From Bdellovibrionia bacterium (lineage in GTDB: Bacteria; Bdellovibrionota; Bdellovibrionia; Bdellovibrionales; JAGQZY01), in NCBI GenBank assembly GCA_030424715.1, contig JAUHWH010000004.1, positions 32,437 through 96,436 on the forward strand: a stretch of 64,000 nt of DNA, given 5' to 3'. Below are positions 5,887-52,097 of the stretch, piece after piece. The position numbers and the translations under genes were made by a program. The first letter of the stretch is position 1. Each line of letters starts with the position of its first letter. Under the pieces are notes generated by a model that did not search any database, was not told the origin of the DNA, and saw only the letters and a program-made list of their open reading frames with translations.

Positions 5887-6555
5887 ATGGTGTTTTGTCG
5901 TTGTCCTCTCTCTCTTTTTAGTCTTCTGGCGATCCTCGTCTTGGATGCTCGTGCTGACACCGTGCAGAGGCCCCAGGCTTGGAGTATTCTACGCTACAAC
6001 CATGACTTGAGTGATGATGAGTCCCTGGGCGCTCAAGCCCAAAACCGCTATGACTTTCGGTCGAACCTGGGTTTTGAAGAGCAGTTCAATTTTTTTTACG
6101 ACCGTCCTCTTTGGGGGCAGCCCGTCACTTTTATTCTCACTCTTGGAAGCACAAAGGGTTACCAGCGCTTGAGTGAACTACGATACGCGCTTCAGGGTGG
6201 GCGCAATTACACGGTCAATTCTCGATGGCAATACAACTGGCGTCTTCGTCATGAGCTGCGTGACTTCAGAAGCGGTGAGCCCATTGCCCATCGGTTCCGT
6301 ATTCGTAACGAAGTTTCGAGGTCCCTGACTTCCCAATGGATTGACGAGTTGAGCTTGAGTGGTGAGTTTAATTTTTACCTCAATAAGGTGATGTCGCAGC
6401 GACAGGGGCTCTCTTCTTATCGTACCATCCTAGGCGGAACTTGGGAGGCCTCGTGGGGGACTTGGGGACTCGCTTACCTTAACGACTTTCGATGGCAACC
6501 CAACGGTAAGGAGATCCGCCACGTCCTTGTATGGTCAATGCTTTATGGGGAGTAG
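5887..6555 (+). CDS. Secreted beta-rich protein, possibly an outer-membrane beta-barrel (DUF2490-like)
   Basis: Signal peptide MVFCRCPLSLFSLLAILVLDARA. Alternating aromatic/polar beta-strand pattern, rich in R/Y/W/N. Confidence 0.4.
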   Translation: MVFCRCPLSLFSLLAILVLDARADTVQRPQAWSILRYNHDLSDDESLGAQAQNRYDFRSNLGFEEQFNFFYDRPLWGQPVTFILTLGSTKGYQRLSELRYALQGGRNYTVNSRWQYNWRLRHELRDFRSGEPIAHRFRIRNEVSRSLTSQWIDELSLSGEFNFYLNKVMSQRQGLSSYRTILGGTWEASWGTWGLAYLNDFRWQPNGKEIRHVLVWSMLYGE

Positions 6556-6561
6556 CGCTTG

Positions 6562-6906
6562 ATGAAAAATGATTCTGATATTGGAGTCAAAATTGATTTG
6601 GCTGGTGAACGTGAGTTGCGAGTTCCCAAAGGGATCAATTTACGTCAGGCTTTGCGCGGCGAGTTTTCGTTTCTTTACCACCCCAAAATGCGCCCCATCC
6701 ATTGCCGAGGCTTGGGCACCTGTGGCACCTGTGCGGTGTCAGTCAAAGGGTTGGTTTCGCCTCCAACAGCTATGGAACGCTGGCGGTTGAATTTTCCTCC
6801 TCACAAAATGTCTTTGGAGAAGGGGCTGCGCCTGGCTTGCCAGACCCAGGTTTTGGGCGATGTCGTGGTTGAAAAGAAGGCGGGGCTGTGGGGCTCAATT
6901 TCTTGA
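6562..6906 (+). CDS. [2Fe-2S] ferredoxin-like iron-sulfur protein
   Basis: Cys pattern HCRGLGTCGTCAV ... RLACQT, typical of plant-type 2Fe-2S binding domains. ATG at 6562 (the track starts at TTG 6559). Confidence 0.6.
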   Translation: MKNDSDIGVKIDLAGERELRVPKGINLRQALRGEFSFLYHPKMRPIHCRGLGTCGTCAVSVKGLVSPPTAMERWRLNFPPHKMSLEKGLRLACQTQVLGDVVVEKKAGLWGSIS

Positions 6907-6922
6907 AGCCGAGCTTCAAAAT

Positions 6923-6950
6923 AAAAAAGAGGCTTCGGCCTCTTTTTTTT
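6923..6950. terminator. Rho-independent bidirectional terminator
   Basis: AAAAAGAGGC-TTCG-GCCTCTTTTTTTT: a GC stem flanked by an A-run and a T-run, lying between convergent genes. Confidence 0.75.
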
Positions 6951-6984
6951 AGTTCTCAATTAACGATGAATGTTTAAAAAATCA

Positions 6985-8295
6985 TTACCATTCGGGCCAA
7001 TCTGGAACTTCGCACCCCGGCACTGAGTTCACGAGATCCAATACGTCTTGGCGCTTGTTTAGCAGCATGGTCCGGTCGAAATTCGGCGCTTCGTCTCGGG
7101 CACCACGTACGATGGCACATTCGATGAGGGCTTCCGAAATTGTTTTATACCCAAGCGTCCAATAGTTCCAACCAGTAGCCCTGGGGTCACGGTTGAACCA
7201 TTCACGATAAATATCACGGACGAAGCGCTGACGATCAAAGAATTCAGAATTGTCGTTTGGAGCTGATGCCGTGTAGTTATTGACGCACTCGTTGGAGGAC
7301 GGGCTGCACCCCTGGCCTTCGCGAACTTCGACAGCGCTATCACACTGTTGAGCCATTCGATTTTCTAGTTCAATTTCAAAATTAGGCGTGTCACTCGAGA
7401 CAGTGCCAGTGAGTCCACTGTTGACCATCGTGGCCTCGGCCCCTGAAATCGTACTCCATTGGCTATTTTCACAACGTCGGTTTTGTTTGAAACACGTGGC
7501 AGCTACATTAAACCGACCGGCGTTTTGGCCAGTGGTCTCCCAAGAGACATTGGTGACAACGATGGGGACAACGGCATTTTGCCCGGGCTCAGTCGTCACC
7601 GTTTCTGATGTTGCCACAGAGCTACCGTTTTGGTAGATGCGAGACTCACAGGATCCGGGAGTGGCATCCCCCCCGCCTGGGTTCAACCAAGCGTAGACTG
7701 GTTGGTTCAAAGACTGGATAAAGTTTCGTGCCATTTCGGCTTTATTAGCGAGAACATAGTTTTTGTCCGACTGAATAGGGCCTTCAAGAAAAAGATATTC
7801 TGCTTGGGTGCGACTGACTGTTTGTAGAACGCCAACCCAATAGTCTTTACCGTCGACATCGGGCGTGCGACCGAACCACTTTAAGTAGAGGCCATCCACA
7901 AAATCAGAGTCCCCATTTGATGAAGAAGAATTACAGGTGTAACTCAGACAACCACCAGCGACCGATTGATTCAGTGTCTGACCGGCGCCGCAGGTTGGGA
8001 TACCAAGAGATGGGTTACACAAAGGAGTGCCTGGGTTACGAGAGCCACCGTCGCCGCTGCCACTGCAGGCAAATTTGGGGCAACCATTGGAGTGATAGTG
8101 TTGCGGTAGGCTGTCAATGCCGGTGCAGTCCACAAAAGTCGTGCTGTCGGAACAAAAAGCCATGTCTCCGTTCGTTGAGTTGGTTTGTGACTGGGGTGTC
8201 GACTTGACGCCTCCGCAGTTTTGAAAGCCAACGACAACGGCGACCGCTGCGACAAGATAAGCAACCTTTAATGAATGTTTACGAAAAATAGACAT
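6985..8295 (-). CDS. Cys-rich lipoprotein with two DUF4214-like repeats
   Basis: Lipobox ...VVVGFQNCGG. Repeats DGLYLKWFGRTPDVDGKDYWVGVL and VRDIYREWFNRDPRATGWNYWTLGY. The ATG at 8295 has a GGGAG RBS (the track starts at 8310). Confidence 0.6.
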   Translation of the reverse strand: MSIFRKHSLKVAYLVAAVAVVVGFQNCGGVKSTPQSQTNSTNGDMAFCSDSTTFVDCTGIDSLPQHYHSNGCPKFACSGSGDGGSRNPGTPLCNPSLGIPTCGAGQTLNQSVAGGCLSYTCNSSSSNGDSDFVDGLYLKWFGRTPDVDGKDYWVGVLQTVSRTQAEYLFLEGPIQSDKNYVLANKAEMARNFIQSLNQPVYAWLNPGGGDATPGSCESRIYQNGSSVATSETVTTEPGQNAVVPIVVTNVSWETTGQNAGRFNVAATCFKQNRRCENSQWSTISGAEATMVNSGLTGTVSSDTPNFEIELENRMAQQCDSAVEVREGQGCSPSSNECVNNYTASAPNDNSEFFDRQRFVRDIYREWFNRDPRATGWNYWTLGYKTISEALIECAIVRGARDEAPNFDRTMLLNKRQDVLDLVNSVPGCEVPDWPEW

Positions 8296-8567
8296 ATCTC
8301 CCACCCCCATGTTCGATAATGCTTAAGTCATAATGTTAGCATGTTTTTTGTATCGGTCTTGAATTTTCGCTTTCCTGTTTCGTAGTGAGACAGGACCGTC
8401 TCAAAATGATAAATTAGGCTCTAAGATCGACGTTGGGCTGTCGCGTGGCTGCCTAAAAACAGTGCTAAAACGAACGGACCTTGGTTGGGGTGGGGGCACT
8501 GAATCACACTTGGTTCCAATCAAGAATCGTACTATAAAAGCATTGCACGCCAAGAAAAGGAGTCATC

Positions 8568-9110
8568 ATGGGCCAGGTTGTGGGCATTATCGGCAGTCTT
8601 AGAGAAAAATCCTATCATCGCCTTATTTTTAATCAATATAAAGACATGGCGAAAGACAGCTTTGATCTCGTAGAAGCACCCATAGGGGAGATCCCCATGT
8701 TCAATCAAGACGTGCTCGATTCTGATGGACTTCCGGCCTCGGTATCCTCAGTGGTTGACCAGATTCGTCAGGCTCAAGGGGTGATCTTCTTTAGTCCGGA
8801 GTACAACTACTCCGTACCCGGTGTTTTAAAAAATGCTTTGGATTGGATCTCAAGAGCGGATGATCAACCCCTTAACGGTAAGCCGTCGGCGATCATCGGA
8901 GCCAGCCCGGGCAATATCGGGACGGCTCGCATGCAGTACCATTTGCGTCAAATTGCTGTGTTTCTAAATATGAACGTACTCAACAAGCCAGAGGTGATGA
9001 TCTCTCGCGTGATGGAAAAAGTTGCAGAAGAAAAAATCTCAGACTCCAAGACAGAGGAGTTTCTCAAGAAGCACATTGCCGTCTTTGCCAAGTTTGCGGA
9101 GAAGTGGTGA
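8568..9110 (+). CDS. NAD(P)H-dependent FMN reductase family oxidoreductase
   Basis: Flavodoxin-like fold motifs VGIIGSLR...FFSPEYNYSVPGVLKNALDWISR. AAGGAG RBS. Confidence 0.8.
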   Translation: MGQVVGIIGSLREKSYHRLIFNQYKDMAKDSFDLVEAPIGEIPMFNQDVLDSDGLPASVSSVVDQIRQAQGVIFFSPEYNYSVPGVLKNALDWISRADDQPLNGKPSAIIGASPGNIGTARMQYHLRQIAVFLNMNVLNKPEVMISRVMEKVAEEKISDSKTEEFLKKHIAVFAKFAEKW

Positions 9111-32107: not shown

Positions 32108-32475
32108 GATATTCCTATTTTTAGTACTAGGGCTTCTTAACCATAAGTCTTCGGACTCATGGAGCGACCCGTGACAGATTTCAGAAACTATTGATTAACC
32201 AACGGCTCTCCAAAATCAAGGACAAAAGAACTCCCTGGGATGGAAAGTCTTTGGTTTAAAATCTCCGCCGAAGGCAGGACAATAGCGGAGAGACCAGAAA
32301 GGGGCGCGGTGTGTGAGCCGATAAAGTCCAATTACAATCATTTGGCCTTGGCGGGAGCGGTCGTTGTCTCAGAATGGACCGAACTCACGACTTTTTTGGG
32401 CTCAATCCTTTAAATTGGGTGGGTTGCCTCCTATAATAATCAATAATTGTTTTAATTTTTGGGAATGGGGGATTC

Positions 32476-41746: not shown

Positions 41747-42409
41747 ATGAAAACCATACTCACTGTTTTAGTCACAATGTTTGCGGCGTCATCCGATGTT
41801 GTCGCTGCCACGTATTCAGAGGCACAGAAGACAATAACGGAGAATGAGGCCACCATTAAAAGCCTAAATGCCGAATTCTTAGCCTTACTGAGTCTAGATG
41901 AAAAATTGCAGACGGTGAGCGCGAAACTTGTAAACAAGAGTCATCTTCTCAACAACATGTTGATTGTTGCTGAACAAAACAAAGATAGTCTCGCTGGTCT
42001 TGGCTACTTTATTGAAGCAGAGCATTTTGAATTCTTCCAACTACCCGAAACCTTCCAAAATAAACGGCTCCAAGAGGTTGGAGCTGAGGCCCTTCCCGTA
42101 ATTTTTACTTTAATCGAAGATCTCGAAAAAGAGTCTTTCGAACTGCCGGCAGCTCCAACGAGAGAGGACATCGCAAACTTGAGTAGGAACACAATCAGTG
42201 TTTATCGAGCCGTTGCTAAGCAGATAACTTTGATCCAATTCCACATCAGTTTAGGGATGCAATACAAAAAAGCGACTATAGCAGGACTTAAGAGGGCGAA
42301 CAGATCACTGAAAGAGGTTCCAGCTCCGAAGAAGAAGCAGGAGAAAGTTGTTCAGCGGCCCCAAGACACCAAGCACTACTGGAACAGCCGAGGTTTGGCG
42401 GTGCCGTGA
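41747..42409 (+). CDS. Secreted alpha-helical protein (hypothetical), first gene of the 41.7-49.4 kb operon
   Basis: GGAGGA RBS. Signal peptide MKTILTVLVTMFAASSDVVAA. Coiled-coil-like sequence. Confidence 0.5.
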   Translation: MKTILTVLVTMFAASSDVVAATYSEAQKTITENEATIKSLNAEFLALLSLDEKLQTVSAKLVNKSHLLNNMLIVAEQNKDSLAGLGYFIEAEHFEFFQLPETFQNKRLQEVGAEALPVIFTLIEDLEKESFELPAAPTREDIANLSRNTISVYRAVAKQITLIQFHISLGMQYKKATIAGLKRANRSLKEVPAPKKKQEKVVQRPQDTKHYWNSRGLAVP

Positions 42410-42482
42410 ACACAAAAATGTAATGACTGAGAGAAAGACCAAACAAACAAGCCAACAAACAAAAAAAAGAAAGGAGATGAAA

Positions 42483-42944
42483 ATGAGAGCAATTTTACTA
42501 ATTTTAACAATACTAGTGGCCTCGGCCGGGAACACCGCCAATGCGGGGGTCTGCATCACAGAGGTGTATGGAAAAGGACTGATGTTGGAGGGGCACTCGA
42601 ACCTCCAGGGGGACGCAGGTGATATCTACCTAGCATCTTTGACCTGCCAAGAGCTCGAGGACATTAACAACGGAGTGCAGGTCGTTGCCATCGGCTTTTC
42701 TGGTGCGGGGATTTACGCGGCTTGCACTGGCGTTGGTCTACCGGCAACTGTCGCGTTAGAGACTGGGGCTTTGGCTCTATCGGCGATCGGATTGATCATC
42801 ACAAACCTAGATTGTGACGATAATGAAAGTGAAAAGATGATTAAAGAAAAAGTGGACCAAGCCGTTTGTGCTTCTTTAGAGGCCCAAGGTTTAGAATGTG
42901 TTCCACCCCTTAACCAAAACAACAACGATATATTTAGTATCTAA
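42483..42944 (+). CDS. Small secreted Cys-containing protein with a Gly/Ala-rich hydrophobic hairpin
   Basis: AAAGGAG RBS. Signal peptide MRAILLILTILVASAGNTANA. Central segment VVAIGFSGAGIYAACTGVGLPATVALETGALALSAIGLIITNL. Six Cys. Confidence 0.5.
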   Translation: MRAILLILTILVASAGNTANAGVCITEVYGKGLMLEGHSNLQGDAGDIYLASLTCQELEDINNGVQVVAIGFSGAGIYAACTGVGLPATVALETGALALSAIGLIITNLDCDDNESEKMIKEKVDQAVCASLEAQGLECVPPLNQNNNDIFSI

Positions 42945-42958
42945 AAAAGGAGACTATC

Positions 42959-43819
42959 ATGAATGTTAAAGTATTTTTTATAAGCTTACTCATTACAACC
43001 CAAGGATTTGCAAACGCTGTGGAAAGCGCACGTTGCGCATCACGTTTTGATTCTTTAGGGCAAGATGTTGCAAAAGGTCGAGCCTCCTGGGCTATTAAAT
43101 GCTTTCCTGATCTAAAGTGGCAAGCCGATGCGGATGGGCAGTTTTATTTGTTTGATGCTCAAAATCAGGTGAAGCAGCTCGGCTATCCAACCTTCATTAA
43201 GCTGGATGCCAATGGTGCCCCCCAAGAATGGGTTGCTCCCACTGATGCCAACGCTGGCTGTGTCAGTCCGGAGATTCACAAATTCGCGGGGTTTTGTCGT
43301 GCTGGTTGCTACACTCCAGATCAAATGCTTCTTTTTTCGGATGGTTATCATTCCATTGAGAGTGCTCGTCGCTCGCTACGAAGTGATATTGTTTCCGTAT
43401 CGCGGGACTCAACAATTGATCAGATCGACTTTCAACTGAGCGAGTTGCGGTCTTACACTGTCGACCCCAAAGCGAAACTGCAAGAGATTTTAACTATTAC
43501 AACTGAAGAAGGGGGCGAGTTGAAGGTGACTCTAAACCATCCTTTGGTCGTCAGTAGCGGTGATATTAAAGAGGCTCGTGACCTTAAGGTTGGTGACAAG
43601 TTGATCAGCGAAGCTGGCACGTTCGAGCCGATCCACTCTATTCAAGAAATTCAATATTTTGGAAAAGTATTGAATGTAGAACTGACCAATCGCAATCTTT
43701 TAAACAATATTGTAGTCGCGCAAGGTTACCTCAATGGGTCGGTTATGTATCAAAATACCGCCACAAAAGAAGTGAACAGACAAGTCTTGAGAACGTTGAT
43801 TCCTGACGCCATTTTGTAA
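42959..43819 (+). CDS. Secreted Hint (Hedgehog/intein-like, BIL-type) domain protein with a ~95-aa N-terminal domain
   Basis: Signal peptide. Hint block A at AG|CYTPDQMLLFSDGYHSIES (Cys117, codon 43307-09). TxxH block KVTLNHPLVV. ...DLKVGDKLIS... and terminal block NNIVVAQGYLNGS. Confidence 0.7.
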   Translation: MNVKVFFISLLITTQGFANAVESARCASRFDSLGQDVAKGRASWAIKCFPDLKWQADADGQFYLFDAQNQVKQLGYPTFIKLDANGAPQEWVAPTDANAGCVSPEIHKFAGFCRAGCYTPDQMLLFSDGYHSIESARRSLRSDIVSVSRDSTIDQIDFQLSELRSYTVDPKAKLQEILTITTEEGGELKVTLNHPLVVSSGDIKEARDLKVGDKLISEAGTFEPIHSIQEIQYFGKVLNVELTNRNLLNNIVVAQGYLNGSVMYQNTATKEVNRQVLRTLIPDAIL

Positions 43820-43864
43820 TTGACGAGGGGGCGAGGTCGCTCGCCCTTCTCTTTGGAGGTCCTT

Positions 43865-45844
43865 ATGTTGATCGTAGAATTAATGAAATTTGCTTTGCTC
43901 ACCTTTTTAGCTACAAGTTGTGTCGCCGCCCATACCGACCAACCTTCATCGCAGTCGCAAGTCAGTCCGCCATTGGTAGAAGCAGAGTTACCTATTCTGA
44001 CTTGTAAGAGAGTCACCGACATCGTTATTGAAAATAGTGATCAAGAGCCATTATGTGTGGACCCAAAAAGAGAGAATGTTTGCTTGCGCAATGATATAAG
44101 CTTTGTGGCGGCCCTTCAGCACCCTGAGAAAGCAATTTTTGAATCGTGCTTGATCTTCGGAGAACCGGCAAGTCTGGCCGCTCTGAATGTGACCCTCAAA
44201 AGAATGCCCGTACGTGTTGATCTTAATGTTGAGTTCAACGAGAAGCAGCGATTTGCCCATTGGGCGGATCAGCATCGAGTGCTACTGAAAGGTCTGCGAG
44301 GCTTTGCAACCAGTTCAAACTTTGGTGAGATTGTGTCTGTGAGTCAGACACCCAGTCCATTTCTTGTGCAAGGTGTTTTGGACCCGCAACTAATGAGTGT
44401 CGATTTCGAGTCAAGCCGTTCATGGCCTCATGCTCCTCAATTGTTAGGCTCTGTCACAGAGCTTATTAAGTACCTGCAAGCAGGAACCCTGAAGGAAAAA
44501 TTTCAAGGTCTTAACACCACTGAGGCTAGACTTCTGGAGTTGAGTAAAAATGCTCCGGTCACTGAGGTTGTTGAGACCTATCGTGAAAACGCCTGTCAAT
44601 CCACTTGCATTAAAGAGTCCGATAAAATCTCACTTGGATCGGGCCAAACATTTTTTAGAGAGTACTTTTCAAGAGGAACAGTCTACAGAAGTGAGTGGGT
44701 CCTTGAGAACTCCGATCAACAAATTGTTGGCTTGTTGTACATGGCAAAGAGCTTTCCCGCTCTATTTGCGAGAATCGAGCGCCACAGTTCCGGAGTCGCG
44801 AAGAGCATTGAGGTAATTAACCGGCAAGGGGCGGTGGTTTTTCAAAAACAGTGGGATATTTCTGATTTAGTGAAGCCGCAGCCTATCGAGGGCCTTGTGG
44901 ACTTCGACTCCATTGAACTACCCAAGGTGGGGTTGTGCGAAGAGTCTCTTGTCCCAGAAATTTTCACGGACCAACACCCTGAAAGTTTCATCTTGAGGGG
45001 CCCGCGTTCGCCAGACAGCTTTTACGGGTGGACGGATGGTTCACAATCGCTTTCAGGTCGAGAGTACGTCAACAAGCTATCTCTGCCGTTGGATCAGTTC
45101 TTTCTTGGTGAACATTCTTTGGATGTAGCCGGTGAGCTGGCGCAAGGAGAGCCGGTCGGCATCATACCTCTTGGGATCAGTGCCTGCCTCAAGCCAAGAG
45201 CCGCCCATGATTGGTGGCCGTCGTTTATCGAAAGTGGCACCCGTGTGATTAATCTGTCGGTGCGCAACCGTGATGACGAGCCAACCTGTCGTGAGTGGAT
45301 CAGGCAACATCCCATCGAGAGTGATCGTGAATCCGTGTTGTGGGTTGTGGCTGCAGGTAACCAAGGGGTTGATGGTCCCAATGGTTGTCCGCAGTATCTC
45401 TCCGGACGACCCAATATCATCGTGGTTGGCGCATCTCAGAGGGGCCGAGTGCACCCCAATAGCAACTACGGTGAAAGTTTAGTTGACATATTCGCTAATG
45501 GAAAAACGTTCGACGGTATGGCGTGGGGGACAAGTTTTGCAGCGCCTAAGGTGGCGAAGGTAGCAGCCGTGATTTTCGCACGCTTCCCGGACCTTACTGT
45601 GGAGCAAGTGAAGGCCGCAATTTTACTGTCAGTGGAGTGGCCGTGGCGAAAGTTGGAGTCCCGAACCGGTGGTGTTTTGGATGCGTCTTCAGCCCTTGAT
45701 TTAGCCGAGTTGATTAATCAAAAGCAGGGCAACATTGATCAAGCCCTCCAAGAAAAGTACGGGAATTTTATAATCAGCTATGAATACGAAAAGAGAAAAG
45801 AATTATGGAAGAAAATATTCAAAGGAGAAAAAAATGAAGAATAG
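43865..45844 (+). CDS. Lipoprotein with C-terminal S8 (subtilisin)-like domain
   Basis: ATG 43865 after GGAGG. Lipobox LTFLATSC. LWVVAAGNQG (oxyanion Asn box) and AWGTSFAAPKVAKVAA (Ser box). The Asp box looks altered (see findings). Confidence 0.65.
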   Translation: MLIVELMKFALLTFLATSCVAAHTDQPSSQSQVSPPLVEAELPILTCKRVTDIVIENSDQEPLCVDPKRENVCLRNDISFVAALQHPEKAIFESCLIFGEPASLAALNVTLKRMPVRVDLNVEFNEKQRFAHWADQHRVLLKGLRGFATSSNFGEIVSVSQTPSPFLVQGVLDPQLMSVDFESSRSWPHAPQLLGSVTELIKYLQAGTLKEKFQGLNTTEARLLELSKNAPVTEVVETYRENACQSTCIKESDKISLGSGQTFFREYFSRGTVYRSEWVLENSDQQIVGLLYMAKSFPALFARIERHSSGVAKSIEVINRQGAVVFQKQWDISDLVKPQPIEGLVDFDSIELPKVGLCEESLVPEIFTDQHPESFILRGPRSPDSFYGWTDGSQSLSGREYVNKLSLPLDQFFLGEHSLDVAGELAQGEPVGIIPLGISACLKPRAAHDWWPSFIESGTRVINLSVRNRDDEPTCREWIRQHPIESDRESVLWVVAAGNQGVDGPNGCPQYLSGRPNIIVVGASQRGRVHPNSNYGESLVDIFANGKTFDGMAWGTSFAAPKVAKVAAVIFARFPDLTVEQVKAAILLSVEWPWRKLESRTGGVLDASSALDLAELINQKQGNIDQALQEKYGNFIISYEYEKRKELWKKIFKGEKNEE

Positions 45845-46532
45845 GACAGTCGCTATTTTTGTCGCGGTTTCGACGATGTTGGTTGTGCTGAGCACCCTGT
45901 GGTTGCAGACCAGTCGAAAGCAGAGGTCAGAAGAGAGAACCAATCGGTTGATTGAAAAAACCGTTAAAGAACGAGTTGATCATTTGAAAATAGAAAAAGC
46001 TACACCGGTTGATGATAGTTCCGCAAAGCATGTTGGAGAGAAACCTTCGGGTATTGATGCTTATTTGTCTAAGATAGAAAAGATTATTCGACTAGAACGC
46101 AAGGTGATTCGAAGTGCTTCGGACAATTCGAGTCTAGAGAAAGCCTTAGCTAATCGAAAGTTGATCAACCAATCCTTGTTGTTTCTAAGTGATGTGGAAC
46201 TTGTGGGTTCTCTTGGTCTCAAGGGCAACCAAGAGCTCAGGATGCAGGCAACGCTATTTTTGTCTCGTGCCTTGGAGTGGCAACAAAACCCTGAGCTTCC
46301 TTGGATACTCGACAAGGTGGGCGACTTTGTGGGTGCTGACAGTCTCAGTGCTATTAAAGATCTTGAAGTCCGCCGCTCTTTTGCTGCCGATAAAGTCGAG
46401 TTGTTTACCAATTTAAAAGATATTTATTTCGAAAAGGGTCTGCAGATTGAACATGAGAATCAGTCAGAAACCAACGCGCGACTCTTTCGCTTTGCCAACA
46501 ATTTTTATAAACTGAATAAACGGGAGATTTGA
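45834..46532 (+). CDS. N-terminally membrane-anchored alpha-helical protein (hypothetical)
   Basis: ATG 45834 after AAAGGAG, overlapping the upstream gene by 11 nt. TM segment VAIFVAVSTMLVVLSTLWL. Confidence 0.5.
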   Translation: MKNRTVAIFVAVSTMLVVLSTLWLQTSRKQRSEERTNRLIEKTVKERVDHLKIEKATPVDDSSAKHVGEKPSGIDAYLSKIEKIIRLERKVIRSASDNSSLEKALANRKLINQSLLFLSDVELVGSLGLKGNQELRMQATLFLSRALEWQQNPELPWILDKVGDFVGADSLSAIKDLEVRRSFAADKVELFTNLKDIYFEKGLQIEHENQSETNARLFRFANNFYKLNKREI

Positions 46533-46533
46533 A

Positions 46534-49392
46534 ATGAGAATTCTAATGGTATTATTTTGTCTAAGCTTTCCGATGATAGCGTTTGCTAATCATAGTCTAC
46601 CAGCCGGAGAGGATAAAGAGGCCGTGCTAGGGATGGGTTTTGATTCTGAAAAAGAGAAGTTCACGGGAACCTGTCTCAAAGGAAAGCTGGTGCGTCGAGG
46701 AAAGCAAGAGGCGAATGTCGCTTTCGAACAAAGTTTAGATCAAAACTCTATGAAAAAAGAGCTGGGTATTGATGCTGGGACCCGATTTCGCTATGGCGAG
46801 GCAACGGTGAAAGCCAGCGCCAAGTTTATGAAATCCAGTCGTAGTGACGGATTTTCTATTTCTGCCGTTTATTCGGGCGACTACAAATTTAAAAACGATA
46901 TTCTTTACTTCGAGGATTCTGCGGACACTCAAGATATAAAGGGGCTTGAGAAACAAAGGTTAACTGATATCGGGAAAGCTGTGCGAAATGACGATGATCG
47001 CTGGCGTGAAACCTGTGGTGATGAATACGTCACGCAAATTGTGCGAGGGGCGAAGTTATTCTATTCAATTAAAATCGAATTTTTAACACAAGAAGAAAAG
47101 GACCTGTTTGAAACGGCCTTTAGTTATGATTCCACATTTGCTTCTGTGAAAGCCAGTCTGAAAAACATTTCTGAGAATTTCAGTAAAAGAACAAAAATCA
47201 CGGTCGGGGCTTTGCAAATTGGTGGGGACACGCGAAAAATTACCGAACTCTTTTTCGACAACAAAGAAACTGGTGACAGTAGTTCAATGGGATTTGTGAA
47301 ATGTTCATTTGGGGACCTTGCCAAATGTGACCAGGTGATGGCTAATGCGATTCGCTACGCCACCAAAGACTTTAAAGACCAACTGGAGTCAAAACCGGAT
47401 CAGCCGAGCTACGAGGGTGGACCCGCAGACCTACGCTATATTACCGCTCCCTATGCTGATGCTGGAATTTTTCCAAAGTTTTCTTCGATTTTAACCGCAG
47501 CAGTCCGAGCGAAGCGATGGGAACTAGAGACCTTGTTTGATCGTCTCATGGACAACCTAGGTACGGTCAATTCCCTGTTAACCTCAAGTTCCGTGGTTTT
47601 GAGCCCGAGGCAAAATGGACTCCTAAAGACGGTGAAGCAAGAACTCGACAAAGACGTCAGAAGCCTCATTTTGGCGGCAGAGACTTGTTACAACTCTGTC
47701 GAGGAGTGTGTTGCCACAGCGGATTCGATCACACCAAAACTGAGTGAGTTTGATGAGAATTCAGTGATCATTTTACCTGAAACCTTTCGACAGTACTGTG
47801 CCCGGTCAGAGAGTACCCTTTCGACTAAAAAGCTAAGCACCTCGATTCGGGGGATGTTGGATGCTGCTCGAGAAATCGAGCCAGACAGCTTTAGTAGTGA
47901 TCCTGGGGGCAAGACAGATTCTTGTTTGCAGGCTCATAATGTGTTTATGAGAAATAACGAGATAAGAACGTTTTCTGGTAAAAAAATTAGTACGTTGGTG
48001 CCTCTACAGGAATATAGCCATTTTGTAGCCGTCGACTTTTCTGAGAACTCTATCGATGACCTCGAGCCGCTCCACGACTGGAAAAACCTGGAGGAGTTGG
48101 ACTTAGGCGACAATAAGATTCGCGATCTGGTTTTTTTAGAGAGACTCGTTAACTTGAGGTTATTATCCTTAAGCAACAACCACCTGCGAGACATCAGTCT
48201 TTTAACAAAACTCCCCATGCTTGAGCGGGTTGATGCGAGAAACAACTTCGAGACGGTGAGCTGTCAGAGCTTTTCGCAAGACGTTGTTTGCCTTAGTGCA
48301 ACCGTGCGGACTGACGCGAAGTTTGTCCATACGTCGACGACAACATCTCGACCACTGTTTATGCCGTCTTTAGTGGATTTGCGGGGTGGGGAGTTCTTGG
48401 TCCTCAGTGATAACCAAGATGTGCAAACTTACCGTTTGGCTGACAATAGCTTTAGTATCACGGGACGTTTGAGTCTTAAGTCTCGTGGTCGGGTCGCGAC
48501 ACAGTTGGCTGATGGTGACATTTTGATCACCGGCGGTTGGTTGTCGGGTAATTCTTTAGCTATTTACAACCCAGAGCTTGGCCAGATGATGCAAGAGTTC
48601 AAAGGGCTGCAGGTACAGCGTGTTGGACACACCAGCACACTTCTTGACGATGGACGTGTGCTTTTGGCGGGCGGCTGGGAAGGCGGAGTGAGTTTCTCCG
48701 GGACAGATGCCACTTATACGGCTGAGGTTTTTGATCCCGAGACAAATTCGACTTATCCGGTGGGCAACCTGCATGCACCAAGAGCTTGGCACACAGCAAC
48801 TAAGCTCTTCGACGGGAAAGTTCTGATTGTTGGTGGCTTTGACTGGAGCAGCGGTATCGCCACGGCCGAGATCTTTGACCCCGAGACCAATGAATTCACT
48901 CAGCTAGAATATTCTATGGCACAAGGGCGTGGGGCTCACTCAGCCACTGTGCTGGCCAGCGGAAAGATCTTACTCGCCGGGGGATTTGATTTGGGTGCCC
49001 AGGCCATTGATCGTGCTGAGCTGTTTGATCCTGCGGTCGGTAAATTTTTGCCCATCAAAGAGACTTTGAATTGGGCTCGCGGCATGCACTCAGCAGTGCG
49101 ACTCAATAATGGCAAGGTTCTATTGGCGGGTGGTTCTGTTGAGCCTTTTGCTCCGGACCATCCCGTCGATTTCACTCCCAATGATCATATCGATCGCGGT
49201 GAGCTTTATGACCCTGTTGAGAACAGCTTTATGAAGGTACCAGGAAAGATGGCTGTTCCGAGAGCACGCCACGGAATGTATGAAACCAAACCCGGAACCG
49301 TATTAATTATGGGTGGTTTAACCTGGGAATCAGCAAATAAGCTCGAAATCTTTAACTATGTGGATGTGAATACAACTTCACCACTGCAGTGA
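46534..49392 (+). CDS. Secreted MACPF-like pore-forming domain / leucine-rich repeat / six-blade Kelch protein
   Basis: Signal peptide. MACPF-like LGMGFDSEK... and CGDEYVTQIVRGAKLF (compare the (Y/W)GTHYvxxxxxGG signature). LRRs NLEELDLGDNKIRDLVFLERLVNLRLLSLSNNHLRDI. Six Kelch units of the type DGxvLxxGG(w/f). Confidence 0.7.
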   Translation: MRILMVLFCLSFPMIAFANHSLPAGEDKEAVLGMGFDSEKEKFTGTCLKGKLVRRGKQEANVAFEQSLDQNSMKKELGIDAGTRFRYGEATVKASAKFMKSSRSDGFSISAVYSGDYKFKNDILYFEDSADTQDIKGLEKQRLTDIGKAVRNDDDRWRETCGDEYVTQIVRGAKLFYSIKIEFLTQEEKDLFETAFSYDSTFASVKASLKNISENFSKRTKITVGALQIGGDTRKITELFFDNKETGDSSSMGFVKCSFGDLAKCDQVMANAIRYATKDFKDQLESKPDQPSYEGGPADLRYITAPYADAGIFPKFSSILTAAVRAKRWELETLFDRLMDNLGTVNSLLTSSSVVLSPRQNGLLKTVKQELDKDVRSLILAAETCYNSVEECVATADSITPKLSEFDENSVIILPETFRQYCARSESTLSTKKLSTSIRGMLDAAREIEPDSFSSDPGGKTDSCLQAHNVFMRNNEIRTFSGKKISTLVPLQEYSHFVAVDFSENSIDDLEPLHDWKNLEELDLGDNKIRDLVFLERLVNLRLLSLSNNHLRDISLLTKLPMLERVDARNNFETVSCQSFSQDVVCLSATVRTDAKFVHTSTTTSRPLFMPSLVDLRGGEFLVLSDNQDVQTYRLADNSFSITGRLSLKSRGRVATQLADGDILITGGWLSGNSLAIYNPELGQMMQEFKGLQVQRVGHTSTLLDDGRVLLAGGWEGGVSFSGTDATYTAEVFDPETNSTYPVGNLHAPRAWHTATKLFDGKVLIVGGFDWSSGIATAEIFDPETNEFTQLEYSMAQGRGAHSATVLASGKILLAGGFDLGAQAIDRAELFDPAVGKFLPIKETLNWARGMHSAVRLNNGKVLLAGGSVEPFAPDHPVDFTPNDHIDRGELYDPVENSFMKVPGKMAVPRARHGMYETKPGTVLIMGGLTWESANKLEIFNYVDVNTTSPLQ

Positions 49393-51047: not shown

Positions 51048-52097
51048 ATGAACTTTCTTGGAGACGCCCATAATTTTGGACAAAAAGTTAACAGGGAAGA
51101 CGACATCGTCAAAAAGCCACGTCCCGTCTTTTGGGAGTGGCTTTTTTTAGATACGGAAAGTGAGTTAAGACAGCTTCTCTCAAAAAGATCTCGGTTAGTC
51201 AGTACAGAAGACCCATTTTTATCATTTCCAAATTTGAATGTTAAAGAAGCCCCTGGGCTTCATGGTTTTCCGGCGGGAGTCGTTGATTACTTTCAAACGA
51301 CTGTTCCGGAAAAATCAGCAATGACTGATTCGTTAGCGAAAGCTGTTGGAAGAGCGATAGGAGTTGCTCATTTTTTTGGTCTCAGTGACCTTCATATTGA
51401 AAACTTTGGTGTTTCACAAATTACAAATGGCTGTTTCTTCTTTCCATTGGATATCGAAGTTATATTCAATCGTCTCAAATTAGCTTCTCAAACCTATATT
51501 TTAGACAGCGTAAAGAATGAATCTAAGATTGTTGGTCTGTCTTTGATGAGAAACAAAAACTTAAATATAGCGGCAGTTATTAGTAGTTACCTGCTGACCA
51601 TAGAGTTTTTGAATACTAATTTGAAAGAAATTAACGATGTTCTCGTTAAGTTAAATGTGAAAAGTATACCGATCAGGTGTATTGTGAAGCCATCGATGGA
51701 GTATGCTGATTATCTCAGGACCGATAACATCGAGTCCTCGGTCTTTTACCCAGAGGAACTGGAGCAGCTCGAGAGAGGGGACATCCCCTATTTTTTTCAC
51801 TATCTGGGCGACTATAGCATTAGATATTTAACTAAGGATGGCGAGAAAGTTACGAGTTTTTCATGGGAAGATGTATTCAAAATGGATTTGATATCGGAAA
51901 GTCAAATTGAACAACCAGTGTCTGTAGTTGATGAAAATGCAATAAAAGCCTCGATTCTGCAGATAGCAAGAACTTTAGACACTACCGTTGAGAATGACTT
52001 TTCGTTTGAAGCCACAACTGTTTCGTTTCAGGGTGACTCAATTTTTATAAAGTGTGGAACGGGTTGGAAGCTGAAATGCCAAAGGATGTCAAAATAG
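51048..52097 (+). CDS. Stand-alone DUF4135 protein (LanM N-terminal kinase/dehydratase-like domain, no LanC cyclase domain)
   Basis: LGDAHNFGQKV...IVKKPRP; GLSDLHIENFGV...FFFPLDIEVIF; IRCIVKPSMEYADYL; ELEQLERGDIPYFF. These blocks parallel those of class II lanthipeptide synthetase N-domains. No signal peptide. Confidence 0.6.
   Translation: MNFLGDAHNFGQKVNREDDIVKKPRPVFWEWLFLDTESELRQLLSKRSRLVSTEDPFLSFPNLNVKEAPGLHGFPAGVVDYFQTTVPEKSAMTDSLAKAVGRAIGVAHFFGLSDLHIENFGVSQITNGCFFFPLDIEVIFNRLKLASQTYILDSVKNESKIVGLSLMRNKNLNIAAVISSYLLTIEFLNTNLKEINDVLVKLNVKSIPIRCIVKPSMEYADYLRTDNIESSVFYPEELEQLERGDIPYFFHYLGDYSIRYLTKDGEKVTSFSWEDVFKMDLISESQIEQPVSVVDENAIKASILQIARTLDTTVENDFSFEATTVSFQGDSIFIKCGTGWKLKCQRMSK

Follow-up and report, generated by a model that had tools for sequence, protein, structure and literature searches.

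What is a Hint domain for when it closes a small secreted bacterial protein? Hint domains make protein thioesters, which serve splicing in inteins, sterol attachment in Hedgehog proteins and ubiquitin-like ligation in the BUBL proteins of Tetrahymena. The question is raised by a gene in contig JAUHWH010000004.1 of a Bdellovibrionia bacterium (assembly GCA_030424715.1), of which we analysed a stretch of 64,000 nucleotides (positions 32,437 to 96,436 of the forward strand; hereafter the window). The gene encodes a protein with a signal peptide, a Cys-containing N-terminal domain (the N-domain), a Gly-Cys junction, a Hint domain and a short C-terminal tail (Table 1). The initial annotation of the window had described this as a Hedgehog-type architecture, and the description fits the layout, but the sequence of the Hint domain is like that of inteins and bacterial intein-like (BIL) domains. 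Conservation among relatives makes it likely that the protein undergoes single-turnover, Hog-style autoprocessing at Gly116-Cys117 and releases an N-domain that would act at the cell envelope together with partner proteins.

The elements on which the initial annotation built its reading are all present in the translation. The signal peptide and the Cys-containing domain ending in FCRAG at residue 116 are both there, the domain measuring 97 amino acids where about 95 had been given; the quoted block A sequence CYTPDQMLLFSDGYHSIES occupies residues 117-135, KVTLNHPLVV occupies residues 189-198 and includes T191 and H194, and the terminal block NNIVVAQGYLNGS occupies residues 249-261. After KVTLNH comes NIVVAQGYLNGS, which extends to residue 261, and 25 more residues follow. 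The predicted signal peptide is of the Sec type and has no lipobox, with a cleavage site judged by eye at MNVKVFFISLLITTQGFANA/VES (a slash marks a cleavage site or junction throughout), and throughout the family alignment the N-terminus stays hydrophobic and closes in an AxA-like motif.

Is the C-terminal domain a genuine Hint domain? The window protein, the only member for which bit scores are given here, reaches 26.8 bits with Pfam Intein_splicing (cut-off 35.8), 21.5 bits with Pfam PT-HINT (PF07591; cut-off 27.7) and 21.5 bits with NCBIfam TIGR01445 (cut-off 24.5), the last aligning model positions 1-83 on residues 117-198, and a search of this protein with the Hedgehog Hint model PF01079 gave no match. 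Among 37 family members, Intein_splicing is matched by 22, PT-HINT by 18 and PF01079 by one (E 0.003). A homolog search returned 38 clusters, mostly of 282-339 amino acids, and in their alignment (A1) G116, C117, Y118, T191, H194 and P195 are invariant, with the AQGxLNGS block and the tail also kept. The family profile retrieves mini-inteins (6rpp, E 4.9e-6) and the C. thermocellum BIL domain 2lwy from the PDB, placing VTlnHP on VTpTHP, and 2lwy is also the best match when the PDB is searched with the single sequence. By hhalign, the family aligns end to end with the Npu DnaE intein (87% probability, E 4e-6), with Cys117 on Cys1, whereas the probability with Drosophila HhC, taken as a query that agrees with the sequence printed in PMC12054796, is 7.6%.

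Structure prediction leads to the same answer. The AlphaFold2 model has a mean predicted local distance difference test score (pLDDT) of 80, with the Hint portion mostly above 85, and Foldseek found 61 PDB matches to it at E<1e-3; all among the matches listed have the Hint fold. Template-modelling (TM) scores, normalised to the target, are 0.84 for 2lwy (the C. thermocellum BIL), about 0.8 for mini-inteins of RecA and DnaB, 0.73-0.75 for Tetrahymena BUBL BIL2 and 0.73 for the Hedgehog structures 1at0 and 6tyy; the E-value for 1at0 is 1.6e-6. The Hint match is thus far beyond chance. Because curated profiles, family profile, hhalign and Foldseek agree, the placement of blocks A (Cys1) and B (TxxH) in the initial annotation is right, and the comparison with intein and BIL profiles that it had proposed puts the catalytic blocks where it had placed them. 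By sequence, the domain resembles inteins and BILs more closely than it does Hedgehog. Block F, for example, reads VYN where inteins have VYD, with N239 at the Asp position, and the C. thermocellum BIL has the same substitution (KVYNF).

Does the family keep the chemistry of a Hint domain, and which part of it? Conservation was counted over 78 unique sequences, made up of the 37 homologs, open reading frames (ORFs) from 48 loci and several large forms. C113, C117, T191, H194, P195 and N239 are each present in 78/78, and residue 116 is small throughout (68 Gly, 9 Ser and 1 Thr), so that the family retains all residues needed for the N-terminal acyl shift. The C-terminal determinants of splicing follow another pattern. 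N259 is Asn in 60/78 and Ser, Thr, Val, Ala, Glu or Gln in 17/78; G260 is kept in 76/78; at residue 261 a Ser or Thr stands in 74/78; and residue 262 varies (V, G, A, L, Q, S, I and others) and is never Cys. In the Npu DnaE alignment GYLNGS pairs with GFIASN, which puts S261 at the terminal-Asn position, give or take about one residue, and the penultimate His of the block G His-Asn pair is absent. N259 was set aside as a catalytic terminal Asn on account of its 60/78 conservation and of this alignment. With no conserved terminal Asn and no +1 Cys, splicing is therefore unlikely, as the initial annotation had concluded; all that follows the Hint domain is the tail.

That tail had been passed over as "almost no C-extein". 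Only 25 amino acids indeed follow ...LNGS, but they are conserved and no negligible remnant: Q265 is kept in 76/78, N273 in 68/78, R274 in 72/78 and R278 in 73/78. The tail was found only in Hint-bearing forms, including large proteins with PKD repeats and with Cys repeats resembling thrombospondin type 1 (TSP1), and is therefore part of the processing module and not the remnant of an extein. AlphaFold models it as a helix with low confidence, and it is possibly a short counterpart of the adduct-recognition region of Hog proteins.

If the Hint domain and tail are the processing module, the N-domain is the presumed cargo. Modelled alone from its own alignment (A2), it gives a pLDDT of 91.7 and a predicted TM score (pTM) of 0.83. 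A fold search of the PDB found no structural relative (best E about 1, TM <0.3), and there is no Pfam or NCBIfam match. Its mean column identity is 31%. Cysteines occur in even numbers, four in 48 sequences, two in 18 and six in 3, and myxobacterial N-domains have only the first and the last, C48 and C101 having been lost together. The even counts and the joint loss suggest one disulfide between C26 and C113 and another between C48 and C101, which would be in keeping with a domain outside the cytoplasm. A redox trap formed by C113-xxx-C117 was considered and set aside, as C113 is probably better explained as the partner of C26, given the pair kept in myxobacteria and the even counts.

A profile of the N-domain, run against 1.84 billion representative proteins, matched 202 proteins of three architectures. 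The first, of about 290 amino acids, is that of the window protein: signal peptide, N-domain, Hint domain and tail. The second consists of secreted proteins or lipoproteins of 105-190 amino acids that have the N-domain only and end a few residues past its last Cys; a tandem double N-domain (P0059) occurs among these stand-alone forms. The third comprises proteins of 650-1100 amino acids in which PKD and TSP1-like repeats are followed by N-domain, Hint domain and tail, with the junction VCVSS/CATPEQ and, in most, a lipobox-like N-terminus as judged by eye. Examples of these large proteins are a gene at 6001-8760 of locus L009, which is directly followed by a homolog of tm230 (described below), and P0083, P0096, P0100, P0101, P0081 and P0159; the P0100 cluster comes from metagenome-assembled genomes of Bdellovibrionales. 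Paralogs with the N-domain alone may stand beside Hint genes: P0044 is a complete ORF of 115 amino acids within contig L008, directly upstream of an N-domain-Hint gene, and Hint genes are flanked by N-domain-only genes in L004, L045 and L047 as well. The Hog analogy is reinforced because such paralogs carry the N-domain without a Hint domain, beside or apart from Hint genes; among nematode Hedgehog-related genes, cargo with and without Hint coexists likewise (PMC1636047). Head-to-tail cyclisation through the N-domain amine was rejected as a general mechanism, since the cassette also ends proteins of 650-1100 amino acids and stand-alone N-domains exist.

How, then, would the protein work? In the Hog-style reaction that we favour, the Sec-exported precursor would lose its signal peptide and the N-domain would fold with its two disulfides. 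Cys117, helped by T191 and H194, would turn the Gly116-Cys117 peptide bond into a thioester, and this would be resolved without splicing, with water as the default nucleophile and a specific acceptor as a possibility. The N-domain would be freed as the functional product, ending in Gly116, and the fragment made up of Hint domain plus tail, the latter serving in processing, would be discarded. Of this scheme, the layout, the Hint fold, the invariant catalytic residues, the missing splicing determinants and the independence of the N-domain are shown here, and we infer the cleavage, the disulfide pairing and the fate of the thioester.

With which proteins might the released N-domain act? The commonest genomic partner of the Hint gene is tm230, found 3' of it on the same strand for 27 of 43 evaluable genes when the loci were annotated with hidden Markov models. 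It is directly adjacent in 15 cases (the typical arrangement in Myxococcota, seen also in the Vibrio locus and with the large PKD form of L009) and lies past a gene for an S8-like peptidase in 11 (typical of Bdellovibrionota). Elsewhere it stands upstream (L028), on the opposite strand (L007 and L032) or is probably frameshifted (L003), and it is absent with tandem paralogs and in one divergent clade (L035, L038 and L039). The idea that tm230 is a universal partner was scaled back accordingly to these 27 genes. As N-domain-only genes lie next to Hint genes, tm230 may go with either the N-domain or the Hint domain. Its 52 clusters, all "hypothetical" or unnamed, come from the taxa that carry the Hint gene; its conserved helical domain has the motifs RKVL, RM..V.YL..ALEW..NPER and R.SLAGDK.EL, and searches of Pfam, NCBIfam and the PDB found no relative. 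A role of tm230 as covalent acceptor is unlikely, since its alignments have no invariant Lys, Ser, Thr or Cys, and a binding role seems likelier. We infer that tm230 acts with the N-domain at the cell envelope, where binding to it is the most plausible role, and that in Bdellovibrionota the S8-like lipoprotein and a protein with leucine-rich repeats and Kelch repeats (LRR/Kelch) may act with the product too. Several myxococcotal genomes (L004, L019, L025, L026 and L034) have several tandem or nearby Hint paralogs, some of which share one tm230.

Several points weigh against Hog-style autoprocessing in this form. The argument for cleavage is drawn entirely from conservation, and every Pfam and NCBIfam Hint match scores below its curated cut-off. 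An oxidising periplasm could trap Cys117. The match between D169 and Asp46 of Hedgehog is off by one in a weak alignment, and 8/78 relatives have no acid at this position. Finally, 16/43 evaluable loci are without tm230, which is thus not obligatory.

The fate of the thioester is where the nearest alternative parts from Hog-style release. A specific envelope acceptor, and not water, might attack the thioester or a branched ester at Ser/Thr261, so that the N-domain or the large PKD/TSP1 forms would become covalently anchored through the C-terminal Gly to a lipid, peptidoglycan or another envelope molecule; D169 would activate the nucleophile, N273, R274 and R278 of the tail would recognise the adduct, and tm230 would be the membrane partner. 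The active site of Hedgehog consists of C1, D46, T69, H72 and C143, and C143 forms a branched thioester, like the +1 Cys of inteins (PMC12054796); D46 is the general base for the incoming nucleophile. Here D169 is acidic in 70/78 and close to the D46 position, and its spacing to T191 is 22 residues, against 23 between D46 and T69 in Drosophila Hh-C. Because it falls one residue off D46 in the weak hhalign alignment (7.6% probability), the equivalence is only a lead. The last strand contains no Cys equivalent to C143, and Ser/Thr261, which occupies the terminal or the +1 position (the register may be off by about one residue), may be its counterpart, at or beside the places of the intein +1 nucleophile and of C143. 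Transfer would also give a use to the conserved tail, which goes only with Hint-bearing forms, and to the linkage with a membrane-anchored protein; large lipoproteins ending in the cassette would gain a second anchor. Among the best fold matches is the BUBL BIL of Tetrahymena, in which an amine receives the N-terminal cargo. Yet the tail is just 25 residues long and polar where the sterol-recognition region is far longer and hydrophobic, tm230 offers no invariant acceptor residue, a sister group (see below) has Asp at residue 261, and the acceptor is hypothetical only. We therefore hold transfer to be rather unlikely.

The predatory or competitive habit of most hosts is one of the points in favour of a second alternative, in which the N-domain is an antibacterial or predation effector freed by a pretoxin-type Hint domain and tm230 is its inner-membrane immunity protein. 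The PT-HINT matches in 18/37 members, the small membrane-anchored protein directly downstream in many loci, the tandem paralogs of myxobacteria and the divergence of the N-domain (31% mean column identity) would all fit such a pair. In polymorphic toxins, however, the Hint domain stands before a C-terminal toxin, and here nothing save the conserved tail lies past it. N-domain-only genes and tandem Hint genes alike are without a tm230 of their own; tm230 is missing altogether from 16/43 evaluable loci; the same cassette terminates large adhesin-like lipoproteins; and the N-domain has no toxin-like fold or motif. A toxin-immunity pair is on balance improbable.

A third alternative starts from the BIL resemblance itself. 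Asn259 might cyclise with a cut at 259/260 and the amine of Gly260 might then attack the thioester, so that N-domain and tail would become joined, a double cleavage or nucleophile-free splicing for which a precedent exists in A-type BILs, described as splicing-competent without a C-flanking nucleophile (PMC5874633). The C. thermocellum BIL 2lwy is the best PDB sequence match of the single protein and the best normalised fold match (0.84), its block F has the same VYN, and Asn-Gly is present in most members, with G260 in 76/78. Even so, N259 is replaced in 17/78 although the N-terminal catalytic residues are all invariant, the profile alignment puts S261 and not N259 at the terminal-Asn position, the penultimate His is absent, and the existence of stand-alone N-domain paralogs without a tail implies that the tail is not in the mature product. 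This course of events is very improbable. Least probable of all is a dead Hint domain that serves for structure or binding in a protein working uncleaved: the sub-threshold scores of all curated Hint models and the Asp-to-Asn change in block F could be read so, but Cys1 and the block B Thr and His are kept in 78/78 across two phyla plus a Vibrio, position -1 is invariably small, and VYN also occurs in block F of the C. thermocellum BIL, which is reported active.

Where does the family occur? A scan of reference genomes seeded with two narrow peptide patterns found 33 loci, all in Bdellovibrionota (Bdellovibrionales, Bacteriovoracaceae, Silvanigrellaceae and Oligoflexia) or Myxococcota (Myxococcus, Corallococcus, Citreicoccus, Pyxidicoccus, Cystobacter, Archangium, Polyangium, Byssovorax and Kofleriaceae). 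A restriction to these predatory phyla was withdrawn in view of the narrow patterns and of a member in Vibrio azureus (WP_021708277.1), which has the junction CVSS/CYTPDQ, is followed at once by tm230 and has genes for the N-domain alone nearby; predatory bacteria are thus enriched for the family without being its only hosts. In the locus of V. azureus NBRC 104587 (L045, 2058-6047), one strand carries a secreted protein of 279 amino acids, the N-domain-Hint-tail gene and tm230, and divergent from these lie a gene for two N-domains in tandem and one for the N-domain alone.

Table 1. The Hint gene, its parts and the genes that follow it, in coordinates of the window
Feature	Coordinates	Strand	Remarks
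Hint ORF	42959..43819	+	286 aa, ATG start; AGGAG ribosome-binding site upstream
Signal peptide, residues 1-19	42959..43015	+	MNVKVFFISLLITTQGFANA/V; read from the translation, cleavage site judged by eye
N-domain, residues 20-116	43016..43306	+	97 aa; conserved C26, C48, C101 and C113; ends at Gly116
Gly116/Cys117 junction	43304..43309	+	predicted scissile bond, predicted N-to-S acyl shift site
Hint core, residues 117-261	43307..43741	+	block A CYTPDQ; block F position N239; terminal block VAQGYLNGS
Asp169	43463..43465	+	acidic in 70/78 (59 D, 11 E); candidate counterpart of Hedgehog Asp46
Block B TxxH, T191-L-N-H194	43529..43540	+	aligned on intein VTpTHP
N259-G260-S261	43733..43741	+	end of the last Hint strand; conservation counts in the text
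Tail, residues 262-286, and stop codon	43742..43819	+	xxYQNExxxxxNRxxLRxxIPxxxx; conserved tail of 25 residues
S8-like lipoprotein peptidase	43865..45844	+	likely ATG at 43865 after GGAGG; Pfam Peptidase_S8 2.8e-18
tm230	45834..46532	+	N-terminal transmembrane anchor, variable Pro-rich linker, conserved helical domain of ~150 aa; overlaps the end of the S8-like gene
LRR + Kelch beta-propeller protein	46534..49392	+	952 aa; Pfam Kelch and LRR; fourth gene of the cassette

In the window the Hint gene, the S8-like lipoprotein gene, tm230 and the LRR/Kelch gene follow one another in tight packing, and the same four-gene cassette, of the Bdellovibrio type, occurs in relatives down to 36% identity. 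The S8-like gene is found directly 3' of the Hint gene chiefly in Bdellovibrionota loci. Its product has an invariant lipobox Cys and invariant H432, N514 and S572, but 5/6 orthologs carry Glu where the catalytic Asp would stand (VC[E/D]xG); the first 430 or so residues have conserved Cys and no match to a known family. The LRR/Kelch ORF begins 2 nucleotides past the tm230 stop codon, and its place in the cassette is unchanged in L001, L005 and L006. Between the stop codon of the Hint gene and the ribosome-binding site of the S8-like gene lies a GC-rich hairpin seen by eye (43829-43854, +; GGGCGAG-GTCG-CTCGCCC followed by TTCTCTTT), and a terminator scan gave a weaker overlapping site at 43845-43859; the hairpin may be an attenuator that lets expression of the Hint gene exceed that of its partners. 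Immediately 5' of the Hint gene, two small predicted secreted proteins are encoded at 41747-42409 and about 42477-42944 (+), one of 220 amino acids and the other of about 153, which contains six Cys and a hydrophobic stretch rich in Gly and Ala; no match to a known family was found for either, and only the closest relative (L001, L002) shares the two. Farther downstream, an ORF of 349 amino acids (51048-52097, +) has a borderline match to Pfam DUF4135 (30.6 bits, cut-off 29) and is followed by genes for an SBP_bac_5 protein and a histidine kinase.

Why would such a protein matter? A conserved family of bacteria in which the Hog layout is complete would reveal what a pre-metazoan Hog-type system does, and it would make the origin of Hedgehog autoprocessing testable in bacteria that are tractable, among them Myxococcus xanthus, Bdellovibrio and Vibrio azureus. 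Its cargo is a domain without a solved structural relative, its dedicated membrane-anchored partner matches no known family, and its concentration in predatory bacteria hints at a function in the envelope or between cells that is still unexplored. Transfer to an acceptor, if true, would be a novel way of anchoring bacterial proteins and possibly a protein-ligation tool, and would be a bacterial counterpart, perhaps an evolutionary forerunner, of Hedgehog cholesteroylation.

How does the family relate to systems already described? Some members bear the name "Hint domain-containing protein" at NCBI, and the general kind has been reported before. Bürglin described in 2008 bacterial C-terminal Hint-like proteins with signal peptides and two conserved upstream Cys, among them MXAN_6253, STIAU_1829, plu1731 and proteins of Reinekea, Serratia and Yersinia (PMC2362128); such proteins were noted also by Dassa and Pietrokovski. 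A literature search found no experimental study of the present family or of Bürglin's bacterial group. Both are secreted and have conserved upstream Cys, a C-terminal Hint-like domain with motifs A and B and a short tail, and both have myxobacterial and gammaproteobacterial hosts. Their C-terminal halves align over VYN ... AxG[FY]LxG[SD]xx[YM]Q (hhalign 91%, E 1e-6, over only the C-terminal 70-85 residues and with supplement fragments recovered by optical character recognition). In these fragments fAgGfLVGDxxmQ pairs with VAQGYLNGSxxYQ of our family, so that S261 corresponds to Asp and Q265 to a conserved Gln. The junctions differ, being AG/CYTPDQ here and NS/CMAEGT or YG/CIAEGT there, as do the tails, with NRxxLR here and LxxLP there, and a paralog from Silvanigrellaceae (L036) has the intermediate motif VAAGGVIVGDLSWQNQ. 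From these motifs the family appears to be a sister branch of the 2008 group, and it is best filed as a variant among the little-studied bacterial proteins with a C-terminal Hint domain.

The other Hint systems share less. Canonical inteins have the Hint fold, Cys1 and TxxH in common with the family, which aligns with Npu DnaE from end to end (87%); unlike them, it is not inserted in a host protein and has no terminal Asn, no +1 Cys/Ser/Thr extein and no homing endonuclease, its Hint domain being vertically conserved as a fixed C-terminal module. BIL domains of types A and B are bacterial Hint domains too, self-cleaving and found in secreted or variable proteins, with similar block B and VYN block F, and one of them, 2lwy, is the closest solved structure by normalised TM score (0.84). 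They lie inside larger proteins with real C-flanks, whereas the Hint domain here stands at the extreme C-terminus after one cargo domain; A-type BILs end in His-Asn, and the family has neither His-Asn nor a conserved terminal Asn. PT-HINT proteins show a weak profile match (18/37), secretion and a small downstream gene as common features. They release a C-terminal toxin, whereas no C-terminal domain exists here and the part presumably released is N-terminal.

Closest in layout are the Hedgehog and Hog proteins, with a signal peptide, a cargo, a Gly/Cys junction, a Hint domain with Cys1 and TxxH, and a short C-terminal extension. Like them, including the nematode Warthog, Groundhog and Quahog proteins, the family lacks both a terminal Asn and an extein for splicing, and it has cargo paralogs without a Hint domain, comparable to the Ground-like and Wart-only genes; block A is also alike (CYTPDQ here, CFTPES in Drosophila). 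In contrast, block F is VYN and not APLT, Ser/Thr261 stands for the catalytic Cys143, and the tail consists of 25 polar residues where Hedgehog has a hydrophobic sterol-recognition region of about 70 amino acids (sequence in PMC12054796). The fold of the cargo is unrelated to Hedge, the host is a bacterium and the place of action the periplasm or cell surface, and the affinity of the Hint sequence is to inteins and BILs, PF01079 being matched by 1/37 members. Judged by its conserved residues, the protein would therefore be Hog-like in its working, yet by sequence it belongs to none of the families Hog, intein, BIL-A and PT-HINT.

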